The notes below the pieces were generated by a model, which made no database searches, was not told the origin of the DNA, and saw only the letters and a list, made by a program, of their open reading frames with translations. Shown one piece after another: positions 14,661 through 44,230 of a stretch of DNA of 64,000 nt. Position numbers and translations under genes: made by a program. The DNA comes from Candidatus Obscuribacterales bacterium (lineage in GTDB: Bacteria; Cyanobacteriota; Vampirovibrionia; Obscuribacterales; Obscuribacteraceae): the NCBI GenBank assembly GCA_965228855.1, contig CBDDIJ010000002.1, positions 2,304,001 through 2,368,000 on the forward strand, read 5' to 3'. The stretch's first letter is position 1; every line of letters starts with the position of its first letter.

Positions 14661-14929
14661 TTAGCTAACCCATATTTGCGAATGCCGCAATATATGCGGA
14701 AATTCGCGGTTTCACTGATTTCTTCGGGGACGAGCTCTCGTCCAGATAAAATCGTAACCGATCGCCCGCTCTAATCACGTTGAAAACTTGCATGTTCAAT
14801 CTAAACTATCTAAAAAGTTGCTGATTCAACTGACAAGCGGCAAGCCCTTTGCAAACTTTGGTTTCTGCGTGCTCGATTTACAGAGAGACGGTAAGATTTC
14901 AATAGGTCGGCGTCAGGATACAAGATTTT

Positions 14930-15598
14930 ATGTTCGAATTTTTCAAAAGCAGATGCGGCGAACGTATTTTGTTTATCGGCGTTGTATCAATGGCTTTTGC
15001 AATCTGTGGGTGCGCATCCACAACTGGCGCGAAGGAGACCGCGCAGATCGGTGCTGAAACGAGTAGCGACCCTGAGCAAATCACGGATTCCGAGCAGTCG
15101 CTGGAAGTATCTAAAGTTAAAACTCCGCCTGGTCTGGAAAAGGCGGTGCTCGCCGCCGGCTGTTTCTGGGGCGTCGAGAAAATATTGCAGGAGTTGCATG
15201 GAGTGAAGGCGACAACGGTTGGTTACACGGGTGGTAAAGAGCTGGATACCGATTACAACCGCGTATGCGCGGGTCGAACCGGTCACGCCGAAGCCGTGGA
15301 GATCTTTTTCGATCCTAAACAGATATCGTTTCACGCGCTTCTGAGCAAGTTCTTTGACCTCCATGATGCAGGCGACAAAGAAGGATTGACATTCCATGGC
15401 GGTCAGTATCGCTCTGCAATTTTCTACACAAGCGATGAACAGAAGAAGGTCGCCGAAGACTTTGTGAAACAGCTAGAGGCGAAAGAGCATCACAAGATCT
15501 ACACGCAAATCGTGCCCGCTACGGATTTTGTAGTGGCAGAGGATTTTCACCAGAATTATTTGAAAGTTCGTGGTCTGGAAGCCAGTTGCCACAAGTAA
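14930..15598 (+). CDS. msrA: Peptide methionine sulfoxide reductase MsrA (Cys form), probable lipoprotein
   Basis: GCFWG, GYTGG, TGHAE, QYRSAIF and AEDFHQNY motifs; lipobox-like AFAICGC; C-terminal Cys. Confidence 0.93.
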   Translation: MFEFFKSRCGERILFIGVVSMAFAICGCASTTGAKETAQIGAETSSDPEQITDSEQSLEVSKVKTPPGLEKAVLAAGCFWGVEKILQELHGVKATTVGYTGGKELDTDYNRVCAGRTGHAEAVEIFFDPKQISFHALLSKFFDLHDAGDKEGLTFHGGQYRSAIFYTSDEQKKVAEDFVKQLEAKEHHKIYTQIVPATDFVVAEDFHQNYLKVRGLEASCHK

Positions 15599-41570: not shown

Positions 41571-42128
41571 TTACTTGTTTCCTGCGCCTGCGGTGAACTT
41601 GCCATAATAGTTTTGATGGTACTGCTCGGCTGCATAGAAGACTTTAGCCGGCTCCAGCAAACTCTTAGCGGCTTCCTGACTATAGCCAAGCGATGATAAA
41701 ACGTCTGCGGCTTCGCGCTTTTGCTGCTCGTCCTGATAAAAGATTGCCGCTCGATACTGACTGGTCGACTCTGTGGAATACCGCTGCGGTTTAAATTCTG
41801 TGAGGTAATGGCGAATCAGGTTTTTAAACGTCAACTCTTTGGGATCGAAAAGAACCTGCACAGCTTCTGCGTGACCGGTTTTTCCGCCGCAGACATCTTT
41901 ATATGTAGGGTTCTTAGTGGTACCGCCCGTGTAACCAGATGTCGCGTGTTTGACACCTTTAATTCGTTGAAGCTCCGCCTCAACACCCCAGAATCATCCA
42001 GCGGCGAGAACGGCTTTATGCAAGTTGCCTTGCTCCGGTAATTTCGCGATAGTGGTGTCTTTGAAGAGCATTATGCAAACCAGGTATCCAGCAATCAGAA
42101 GCAGTATCAAATTCAGTGGTCCGTTCAT
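41571..42128 (-). CDS. msrA: MsrA with in-frame TGA at the catalytic position: candidate selenocysteine MsrA, N-terminal TM anchor
   Basis: Track ORFs 41994..42185 and 41571..41861 are in one frame. Readthrough gives AVLAAG*FWGVE...GYTGG..KNPTYKDVCGGKTGHAE...QYRAAIFY...AEQYHQNYY (185 aa; TGA at 41996-41994 is codon 45). GGAG RBS. Confidence 0.8.
41962..41996 (-). other. Putative bacterial SECIS element
   Basis: mRNA reads UGAUUCUGGGGU-GUUGAGGC-GGA-GCUUCAAC-GAAU: 8-bp stem, G-first apical loop 17 nt after UGA, plus a possible lower AUUC/GAAU stem. Confidence 0.65.
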
Positions 42129-42144
42129 AGTCGTCGCTCCGGCC

Positions 42145-42690
42145 CTATCCTTCCAGTATAAGCATTGGGAGATTTCGTGCCACACGTTTGAATATCTGAT
42201 AGTCTCTCAGCGCGCGGGAAACAATGAGTGAACCTTCGATGGCGATGAGTGCATTTTCTGCTCTCTCCCTTGCCAGTTTTTTATTTAAACCATTCTCGAC
42301 GGCCACACCTGCGATCGCTTCGATCCAGGCTTCGAGGCTTTGCTGAACGAGCTCTTGAAACGGAGCGCTTGCAGCTCCTAGCGTCAAACCCTCAACAATG
42401 CATCCTTTCCGTCCACCGTCATAGAACTCTTCGATGGTTTTTGCCATGGTCGCGAGCTTCAGCTCCGGTTTGCCCTCCGCTTTGAGCGGTGCGATGAAGT
42501 GTTCTCTAACTGCTGAATCGATGTGTCCAAGCACTTCGCGGGCCATTTCTTCCTTTCCGCCGGGAAAGTGGTGGTAAAGACTGGACTTGCCTAGACCAGT
42601 AGCCTTCGAGACCTCGCCTATGGAAACGCCCTCATAGCCTTGTTGGCGAAACAGCTCCAATAGTTCATTAATCAGTGCGGTCTTGTCCAT
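42145..42690 (-). CDS. TetR/AcrR-family regulator (LmrA/YxaF/NemR-like)
   Basis: LFRQQGYEGVSIGEVSKATGLGKSSLYHHFPGGKEE HTH; KGCIV motif; IEGSLIVSR. Confidence 0.93.
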   Translation of the reverse strand: MDKTALINELLELFRQQGYEGVSIGEVSKATGLGKSSLYHHFPGGKEEMAREVLGHIDSAVREHFIAPLKAEGKPELKLATMAKTIEEFYDGGRKGCIVEGLTLGAASAPFQELVQQSLEAWIEAIAGVAVENGLNKKLARERAENALIAIEGSLIVSRALRDYQIFKRVARNLPMLILEG

Positions 42691-42840: not shown

Positions 42841-43764
42841 TTACTTCGGGTTGAACGGAGAGGCGTCGATGAATTCGAGTTCGAAAGCAGGTATGGTAGC
42901 TCTTTGCCAATGTTCTATATCCAGCGTCCAGAAACGATTGGTACCACCAGTTTCACCGTTTGGATCTTCCTGATCAAGAAGAACCGCAGCTCGTCCGGAT
43001 ATCTGAAGGCTTTGACGGGCGGCAAAGTCTAGAATGATGACACCGGCTCTATCGTTCAGCTGCAGATTGCCGAACGAATTGAACATGCTATTGCCTGCGA
43101 AGTCCGGCACACGAAGCTGCTTTCCGTCGACCACGCGAACAAACCCTTGCTTGCCTCCTCGATGGGAAATATCAAGGTTGCCTTCCGGATTCGAGGTTGC
43201 GGCAAACATCGTATCGCTATTTTGGATAAGCGCAATTTCTTCGGCTTGGAGCGTGGTTCCTCGAGCTAGAGATGTGGTTAATATCGCGTTTTTGTCATCC
43301 GGCAGTCTAACCTTTCGACGCTGAATATATTTCGGGCAGAGTGGAAAGGATTCCTCGACCGCGATGAGCAGCTGTTCTTCAGTATGTGTGGAAACTCGCC
43401 CGTTGATCTTCAACCGTCTTCTCGTGTCCAGTTCGATCAGTAGAGTTCCAACGCGCGGGTCGTCGCTGATGTTTGTCAGCAATGGATCACCTTCTATGCC
43501 AATCGACTGCGTCAAATCAATATTTAATTCCCTGGTGCTCGGTGCGTGCATGAAACCAGGCTTTCCGAAGAGCATAGACGCCCAGAGATCGCCAGTGGAA
43601 TCTTCAGAAGCGACCACGACCAGCGGTTGGCGATCAATGAAATTCAAGGCGCCACCAAGAATTTCACTCTTAACCGCGACAGAGTTCATCATCGCGATAT
43701 CTCGCTCGCCCGTTCGCTCTTGTATGTCGAGCTCGCCTTCATGAAATGGCCCATCAGAAAACAT
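42841..43764 (-). CDS. Pyridoxamine 5'-phosphate oxidase-like FMN-binding protein (tandem domains)
   Basis: PFHEGE...WASMLFGKPGF...RRRLKING...CPKYIQRR...DISHRGGKQGFV...PDFAGNSMFNSFGNL. Confidence 0.9.
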   Translation of the reverse strand: MFSDGPFHEGELDIQERTGERDIAMMNSVAVKSEILGGALNFIDRQPLVVVASEDSTGDLWASMLFGKPGFMHAPSTRELNIDLTQSIGIEGDPLLTNISDDPRVGTLLIELDTRRRLKINGRVSTHTEEQLLIAVEESFPLCPKYIQRRKVRLPDDKNAILTTSLARGTTLQAEEIALIQNSDTMFAATSNPEGNLDISHRGGKQGFVRVVDGKQLRVPDFAGNSMFNSFGNLQLNDRAGVIILDFAARQSLQISGRAAVLLDQEDPNGETGGTNRFWTLDIEHWQRATIPAFELEFIDASPFNPK

Positions 43765-43849
43765 ACGCTACTCCTTTCTGGCTCAAGGTGCCGGTTTCTA
43801 TCATCGAATCCGTCACCTTGAGCGCAGCACCATGGCCGGTGACTCTGAA

Positions 43850-44230
43850 TTAGAAGTTCACAATCGTGTATCCATCGCTGATCAATTTACGCAAACTGGT
43901 GACACCTGAAGTTCCTGGAACTGTGTTGTCTTTGATTAATGCGTAACCTTCTTTTTCCGCGTCTTCCGAGGCTCCGAACACGTCGGCGCAACCGCAAGAG
44001 ACGCCGGCGACTTTGTCTCGAACCGCTTCGTAAAGTTCGTGTGCCGGGTGATCCGGTTTTCCAAGTTGTCCGACCCAGCGAGTGCCGGCGCCTTGAAACA
44101 TAAGCGTGACGTCGTCGCCGTTTTTCTTAAAGTCGTAAGTGGCAGCGAGTGCGTTGAACAAGCGACCGAGCGCTTCTTCATTGCCGTTTTTCGGATCTGA
44201 GTAAACGAGAATTGCAGTCTTCATTGGCAT
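43850..44230 (-). CDS. DsrE-family protein
   Basis: RLFNAL...DVTLMFQGAGTRW...GVSCGCADVFG; AAGGAG RBS. Confidence 0.8.
   Translation of the reverse strand: MPMKTAILVYSDPKNGNEEALGRLFNALAATYDFKKNGDDVTLMFQGAGTRWVGQLGKPDHPAHELYEAVRDKVAGVSCGCADVFGASEDAEKEGYALIKDNTVPGTSGVTSLRKLISDGYTIVNF

Follow-up and report, generated by a model that had tools for sequence, protein, structure and literature searches.

Within the window (the whole 64,000-nucleotide stretch of Candidatus Obscuribacterales DNA that was analyzed, from a genome referred to here as G000), an msrA gene on the minus strand is interrupted by one in-frame TGA, such that the standard code yields fragments of 63 and 96 amino acids. The features of the locus are as follows.

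41571..42128, minus strand: msrA coding sequence, 185 amino acids, with selenocysteine (Sec) predicted at residue 45 (translation, profiles, predicted fold)
41994..41996, minus strand: in-frame TGA (predicted Sec45) at the catalytic Cys position of G-C-F-W-G; conserved, and aligned to Cys in three paralogues
41965..41985, minus strand: predicted bacterial SECIS, 9-bp stem with a GGA triloop at 41976-41974 (folding, conservation)
42063..42119, minus strand: N-terminal hydrophobic helix, residues 4-22, a putative signal anchor or signal peptide (hydropathy, flanking charges, model)
42137..42140, minus strand: GGAG ribosome-binding site, 8 nt 5' of the ATG (sequence)
42145..42690, minus strand: TetR-family (LmrA/YxaF-like) regulator, ending 16 nt before msrA (profile search)

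Translation of the minus strand from 41571 to 42128 gives 185 residues followed by TAA, and the TGA at codon 45 is the sole in-frame stop. The original prediction placed this TGA exactly at the Cys of GCFWG, and the translation bears this out: it lies at 41996-41994 within AAG-U-FWGVE, and the motifs GYTGG, TGHAE, QYRAAIF, and AEQYHQNYY are undamaged 3' of it. With C standing for U, the read-through product scores 137.3 bits against TIGR00401 (cut-off, 108.1) and 153 bits against PF01625 (cut-off, 23.7), so that the two fragments can be taken together as one 185-residue MsrA, as proposed. The diagnostic peptide put forward, AAGUFWGVEAELQR, is incorrect; cleavage after K37 gives the tryptic form AVLAAGUFWGVEAELQR. 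Protein databases show the clade to which this MsrA belongs as fragments plus one Cys member, and NCBI holds a clade protein as a 131-residue record with a start 3' of the UGA, which is a truncation, where a pseudogene call had been predicted. We are highly confident, in a judgment that covers the Sec-MsrA reading and leaves membrane orientation aside, that the read-through product is a genuine Sec-MsrA and thus belongs to both the MsrA family and the bacterial selenoproteins, as its sequence indicates; Sec insertion itself, activity, reductant, and orientation are what we infer for it.

If the TGA were instead a nonsense mutation in a pseudogene or a sequencing error, loss of the gene would be cheap, since G000 has three intact Cys-MsrA paralogues that make the TGA copy dispensable. 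The genome also offers an example of such a change in a secreted beta-carbonic anhydrase (G000 C5:1258240-1258932, plus strand; L212:1441-2133), which has TGA at the Cys of its HxxC zinc ligand in G000 only: among 21 matches, 18 loci with the motif were read and one has TGA, the 17 relatives having TGY, with TGC in a 98%-identical orthologue. We rejected it as a selenoprotein, and from these alignments its TGA is probably a strain-specific nonsense change or a base error. The msrA orthologue is found in eight of the 61 genomes searched (G000 included), and all eight have TGA at the catalytic codon; the other seven are 52 to 98% identical to the query, and at the lower end synonymous sites are near-saturated. 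Over the 99 codons after the UGA, 12 pairs compared with G000 have pS values of 0.67 to 0.87 and pN values of 0.13 to 0.31, and the closest pair has a pS of 0.104 and a pN of 0.004, these being ungapped comparisons in which one sequence has a late frameshift. Both halves of msrA are, as judged from these alignments, under purifying selection, and the hairpin 3' of the stop is likewise conserved. A public contig from an independent strain (X8) has 22 other differences from the stretch in 901 nt and keeps the TGA, and 11 of its 13 coding differences are at third positions; two further contigs, X1 and X3, match the stretch exactly and may be source data. Because the TGA recurs in orthologues from seven other genomes and is kept in X8, we conclude that it is not a base error, and either form of this explanation is exceedingly improbable. 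A TGA unique to this strain, or relaxed selection downstream, had been named as grounds for abandoning the prediction; neither was found. Failure of the carbonic anhydrase where msrA passes indicates that these tests can tell a genuine Sec gene from a damaged one.

The sequence straight after the UGA, GUUGAGGC-GGA-GCUUCAAC, is predicted to form a stem-loop with a minimum free energy (MFE) of -9.2 kcal/mol, and the loop begins 17 nt downstream. The z-score of the hairpin is -3.1 over a 41-nt stretch and -0.9 over a 77-nt stretch. The bacterial SECIS model, as set out in the Fig. 2 legend of PMC13188914, has a loop of 3 to 9 nt with G in the first two loop positions, a stem of 4 to 16 bp, a spacing of 16 to 37 nt, and an MFE of at most -7.5; the msrA hairpin lies within the constraints of that legend, with its 3-nt GGA loop, 9 bp, and 17 nt. 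At codons +4 to +9, a single codon encodes the majority residue in 14 of 14 sequences, some of them close kin, and the mean top-codon share in the same sequences is 0.56 for codons +11 to +99. A strict hairpin test is passed by 20 of 32 TGA forms, the other 12 being without a strict hairpin, and by none of 18 Cys forms. Covariation is weak, with two-sided change in one of eight pairs, 96% of cells pairing, and 40 of 500 shuffles reaching the score.

All four genes of the bacterial Sec-decoding system accompany this SECIS-type hairpin in G000, an 8.2-Mb genome in six contigs (95.3% complete, 5.8% contaminated). The selA match scores 520.5 bits in a profile search, selB is over its cut-off and has a SelB-wing_3 domain, selD (371.5 bits) is Cys-type with GGCAAK, and tRNA-Sec scores 73.5 bits with a UCA anticodon; they lie at four separate loci on three contigs. 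The search for selA, selB, selD, and selC had been proposed as a check, and a genome devoid of them is not what was found. We did not find selU in G000, so no selenouridine use accounts for selD. The selA gene adjoins the tuf region and a tRNA-Thr/Tyr/Thr cluster (C3:2570748-2576104), tRNA-Sec lies immediately 5' of rpoB, and a SirA/YedF-like gene comes after selD; these core-genome positions suggest long residence.

We also note other features of the genome. A dense array of 21 tRNA genes occupies 3.5 kb at C3:724518-727973 (minus strand) and includes a tRNA-Cys call with an ACA anticodon and one unassigned tRNA, and a second cluster of five tRNA genes lies at C3:1529761-1530653 (minus strand). 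The small contigs C1, C4, and C6 have GC contents of 54 to 55%, compared with 50 to 53% in the main contigs, and C4 carries mercury-reductase-like and other foreign-looking genes and may be a plasmid or contamination.

Some bacteria recode UGA to Cys through tRNA-Sec-like tRNAs, and the msrA codon could similarly be read as Cys by such a tRNA, or as Trp through leakage or a code change, to give an ordinary or an inactive MsrA. Yet TGA terminates 1,682 of the 5,799 called genes in G000 and thus remains a normal stop, with no global reassignment, and ARAGORN at default settings reports one UCA tRNA, which it scores as tRNA-Sec. Moreover, TGA forms track selA in the MsrA, ArsC-like, and SelW-like families. 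We regard decoding as a residue other than Sec as very unlikely, and Sec remains the preferred reading.

When paralogues are counted and each case is checked by translation, TGA-MsrA is present in 18 of 37 genomes of the G000 family: 18 of the 30 that are selA-positive versus none of the seven that are selA-negative, counts that come from related genomes and are not independent. The seven selA-negative genomes, one of them only 58% complete, have nine MsrA matches, none with a stop, and no TGA-MsrA was seen in 12 of the 30 selA-positive genomes. A short sequence pattern alone proved too noisy as a Sec-MsrA marker, with hits outside msrA in selA-negative genomes, so we counted only hits within MsrA matches. 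A pattern scan of GTDB returned at least 119 loci (L090-L208), at least 102 of them MsrA. Among the matches listed, 80 loci are titled, and 20 of these are from Obscuribacterales/Melainabacteria and 31 from Planctomycetota, in whose metagenome-assembled genomes Sec-MsrA is thus common and often fused as MsrB-MsrA. Armatimonadota, Actinomycetota, and Myxococcota records also contain it, with selA in most of the genomes tested. A selA search of 48 TGA-MsrA genomes picked from the 102 or more matched in 45 and not in three, and matched in one of two non-MsrA control genomes; with selA in 45 of 48 genomes from many lineages, Sec-MsrA is widespread and not peculiar to G000. As this type of enzyme is known, the gene by itself is of modest interest and serves to correct an annotation. 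The suggestion of a Sec-MsrA in a Melainabacteria genome nonetheless stands, with complete machinery, a TGA common to relatives, and a constrained downstream half.

An AlphaFold2 model built from a 16-sequence alignment (pLDDT, 88.1; pTM, 0.80) has the MsrA fold, and all listed PDB matches with an E value of ≤0.001 are Msr entries, one with a glutaredoxin title. Residues U45, F46, W47, Y76, E88, Y125, and YHQ are invariant in that alignment. From their spacing, Y76, E88, and Y125 would correspond to Tyr82, Glu94, and Tyr134 of Escherichia coli MsrA, and C80 to Cys86; in the accessible part of PMC6316033, the E. coli residues hold the sulfoxide oxygen. Compared with Cys-type MsrAs (E. coli and the Neisseria PilB domain), the G000 protein shares the fold, the triad, FW, and YHQ, and differs in having predicted Sec in place of Cys51, no equivalent of Cys198/Cys206, and no NRQGxD loop. 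The absence of a C-terminal resolving Cys had been noted at the outset and is correct, as there is no Cys after C80, nor is there a C-terminal Cys in any of the 12 Sec clade members in our tree. These 12 form a clade (support, 100) with a long stem (1.09 changes per column), in which the H-D-P-T..R-Q-G-x-D loop kept in most Cys-MsrAs is replaced and the substrate-side loop is three residues shorter; we found no paper on loss of the Asp129 loop.

One full-length database member (P0006, 60% identity) lies inside the clade and has an active-site Cys together with three C-terminal Cys residues. This single case suggests that no resolving Cys is needed by the Sec form, and the clade provides a naturally occurring Sec/Cys pair of which the Cys partner alone has resolving Cys residues. 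We obtained no support for a single origin of Sec in Obscuribacterales MsrA, as the tree shows several Sec lineages with weak deep support. Elsewhere in the window (14906-15598, plus strand) is a Cys-type MsrA with a lipoprotein-like N-terminus that is without the NRQGxD loop and groups weakly with the Sec forms; it may, from this grouping, be a Sec-to-Cys reversion.

The closest characterized comparison is with MsrA of Clostridium (Alkaliphilus) oremlandii OhILAs (PDB 4LWJ, U16C), an experimentally verified bacterial Sec-MsrA (Table 1 of PMC13188914; PMC4333827, as available in part) that likewise has Sec in G-U-F-W-G and no resolving Cys. According to the accessible part of PMC4333827, CoMsrA has one Sec and no other Cys, is 20-fold more active than its Cys version, is recycled by glutaredoxin, and needs its C-terminal helical domain for activity. 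The 4LWJ fold matches the predicted MsrA with a TM-score of 0.66 and 36% identity, in a match that spans CoMsrA residues 7-144 only. Unlike CoMsrA, the G000 protein stops 14 residues after H171 (at residue 185), without the C-terminal helical domain, and has an N-terminal hydrophobic helix, C80, and a rebuilt substrate loop. By its sequence it is thus not of the CoMsrA helical-domain type, and its clade, separate from CoMsrA, contains only Obscuribacterales-type genomes among those sampled.

We propose the following mechanism. SelB with Sec-tRNA(Sec) would bind the GG-triloop hairpin 17 nt downstream, and UGA45 would be recoded as Sec. The Sec45 selenolate would attack a sulfoxide held by Y76, E88, and Y125, releasing Met and leaving a selenenic acid. 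As there is no C-terminal resolving Cys, an external thiol or selenol partner would reduce the selenenic acid directly, as happens in the C. oremlandii enzyme with its single Sec. The helix at the N-terminus would tether the protein to the inner membrane, where it would more probably face the periplasm. Sec could also be inserted into an enzyme whose substrate is something other than peptide Met-S-sulfoxide, such as a membrane-bound sulfoxide, and the rebuilding of the substrate-side loop throughout a clade on so long a stem is consistent with this. The loop also varies, however, in other Sec-MsrAs and in one Cys paralogue, and the sulfoxide-binding triad, FW, YHQ, and fold are those of MsrA; a different substrate is, in our estimation, unlikely, and peptide Met-S-sulfoxide is the preferred one.

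The location of the catalytic domain is less readily assigned. Residues 4-22 are hydrophobic (mean KD, 2.45), and the AlphaFold2 model has a helix at residues 3-21. Under the positive-inside rule, the flanking charges also fit an N-out/C-in helix, with the same Sec-MsrA having a cytoplasmic catalytic domain that glutaredoxin or thioredoxin would recycle. Lys and Arg are absent before the segment in 13 of 14 clade N-termini, and all 14 have two or three within the 15 residues after the helix. G000 also has Cys glutaredoxin-family genes, and glutaredoxin reduces the single-Sec MsrA of C. oremlandii in the accessible part of PMC4333827. Against this, the positive charges downstream are balanced by two acidic residues, and most of the other Obscuribacterales Sec-MsrAs inspected have classic signal-peptide-like N-termini. 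Peptidase I sites follow a small-x-Ala rule, and after the helix there is such a motif (T-I-A, S-I-A, A-I-A, or T-P-A), a potential cleavage site. Granted that Sec is real, and as an alternative concerning location only, we give the cytoplasmic arrangement a somewhat less than even chance; on these sequence features we modestly favor a periplasmic catalytic domain, for which export is likely. G000 carries DsbD-type genes and a Sec-TlpA lipoprotein. Of the proposed extracytoplasmic protein with an N-terminal anchor, the conserved hydrophobic helix is thus upheld, and the location is somewhat more likely than not.

The TetR-family regulator is possibly cotranscribed with msrA, and the two are adjacent in two of eight orthologue loci. 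We discarded the idea of a conserved msrA operon, as the neighbors differ in the other six of the eight, and counts of promoters and terminators equal chance. Upstream of the TetR gene (window 42841-44230, minus strand) are a DsrE-family gene and a gene for a pyridoxamine-phosphate-oxidase-like flavoprotein, a small redox cluster on the same strand as msrA that is next to it in the closest relative alone.

A scan of 38,732 TGA read-through frames in G000 yielded four further candidates worth following, one of which is the carbonic anhydrase described above. The other three are known selenoprotein types with a conserved TGA and a short hairpin with G at the loop start.

G000 C5:1078428-1079378 (L209), minus strand: TlpA/ResA-like lipoprotein, WSMT-U-HSC (UxxC), with a long N-terminal region
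G000 C2:1482070-1482417 (L210), minus strand: SelW/Rdx-like protein, CGA-U-G (CxxU), with a GGU-triloop hairpin ~22 nt after the UGA
G000 C3:2656299-2656646 (L211), plus strand: ArsC-family (NF041106) protein, U-VSC, with a CAAGA-GUU-UCUUG hairpin

The TGA of the TlpA/ResA-like lipoprotein, a candidate exported Sec disulfide reductase by its motif, is conserved in five genomes, and the protein is under all NCBIfam cut-offs. The SelW-like gene has TGA in most members of the family and at all 12 loci that were read; in the two selA-negative genomes with a match, it is free of stops. For the ArsC-like family, 18 of 32 matches have TGA, all in selA-positive genomes, and the matches in four of four selA-negative genomes have Cys; the family alternates between Sec and Cys, with the CAAGA-GUU-UCUUG hairpin only in the TGA forms read. 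We found no Sec forms of Grx, Trx, GPx, or further AhpC/TSA proteins in G000, and Gly-UGA-X-stop helical-repeat selenoproteins were not evident there. Obligate pairing of Sec-TlpA with Sec-MsrA was rejected, as only two genomes are common to both.

We surveyed G000 together with 400 evenly drawn Cyanobacteriota genomes for the distribution of the trait. There are selA matches in 16 genomes and PsaA/B matches in 182, and no genome has both; G000 has no PsaA/B match. The 15 other selA genomes belong to five photosystem-less families outside the class of G000 (15 of their 20 genomes), presumably Sericytochromatia or similar lineages. One small-genome family of G000's own class has selA in none of 178 genomes, and in the G000 family it is present in 30 of 37. 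The expectation that Sec use is not typical of cyanobacteria therefore holds for oxygenic members (selA in none of the 182 photosystem-bearing genomes) but fails for the G000 family, selA being common in nonphotosynthetic lineages. An apparent Sec-MsrA in an oxygenic cyanobacterium (L127, Drouetiella sp.) was discounted, as the genome has no PsaA/B and its sequence groups with one of the Obscuribacterales family; the record is probably a mislabeled nonphotosynthetic genome.

The repertoire of the family is also unusual. Sec decoding was not detected in Cyanobacteria among the 75 Sec users surveyed in 2006, and FdhA or SelD was in every selenoproteome (accessible part of PMC1794560); G000, by comparison, has a Cys-type SelD, and Sec-FdhA was not found. 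Of 35 SelD matches in the 61 genomes, 34 are free of stops; we rejected the exception, a Sec-SelD in G006, which is on a 1.6-kb contig of 70% GC and is probably contamination. None of 46 matches to the FdhF-type model, the only FdhA model covered in the relatives, has a stop, with two beginning beyond the Sec site, and the three molybdopterin proteins of G000 are uninterrupted. It is quite probable that this family keeps Sec with neither Sec-FdhA nor a native Sec-SelD.

The lack of Sec decoding in Cyanobacteria is restated in the available portion of PMC9312934, and that of PMC13188914 includes MsrA among the verified bacterial selenoproteins and says nothing of Cyanobacteria or Melainabacteria. 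From the excerpted text of PMC5029168, Prochlorococcus has only an orphan SelD, and aerobes make up 40% of Sec users, which means that Sec use by an aerobe is no novelty in itself. Among the rows listed of BSepDB Table S1 (PMC13326102, in part) are at least 18 Vampirovibrionia and at least eight Sericytochromatia, with none named Obscuribacterales, and the BSepDB online entries may already hold some Cyanobacteriota selenoproteins. PMC12013277 (text and four supplements) makes no mention of Sec use in these lineages, the accessible portions of PMC11823831 and PMC13578239 contain nothing on it, and we found no report in the open-access literature of Sec use in these nonphotosynthetic Cyanobacteriota.

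In a quick SelA tree, the Obscuribacterales sequences group together (SH-aLRT, 99), and neither the deep forks nor the phylum is resolved; 11 of 60 rows were left out, one row was mis-extracted, and outgroups were few. A tentative and rather doubtful scenario is that Sec was ancestral in Cyanobacteriota and was lost toward the oxygenic phototrophs and gut lineages, with Obscuribacterales maintaining it through envelope oxidative-repair selenoproteins, possibly in a relay from DsbD through the Sec-TlpA lipoprotein to an anchored Sec-MsrA, for which co-occurrence support is weak.

On the genomic evidence, nonphotosynthetic relatives of cyanobacteria almost certainly use selenocysteine. In this nonphotosynthetic Cyanobacteriota family, most genomes have the full machinery and spend it on small thiol-type oxidoreductases. 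To a selenium specialist the enzyme itself would be familiar, but its lineage would come as a surprise, as would Sec use apparently independent of Sec-FdhA and Sec-SelD. The Sec-MsrA clade raises the question as to what keeps the Sec trait without FdhA, and is a marker for asking whether Sec disappeared when oxygenic photosynthesis arose.
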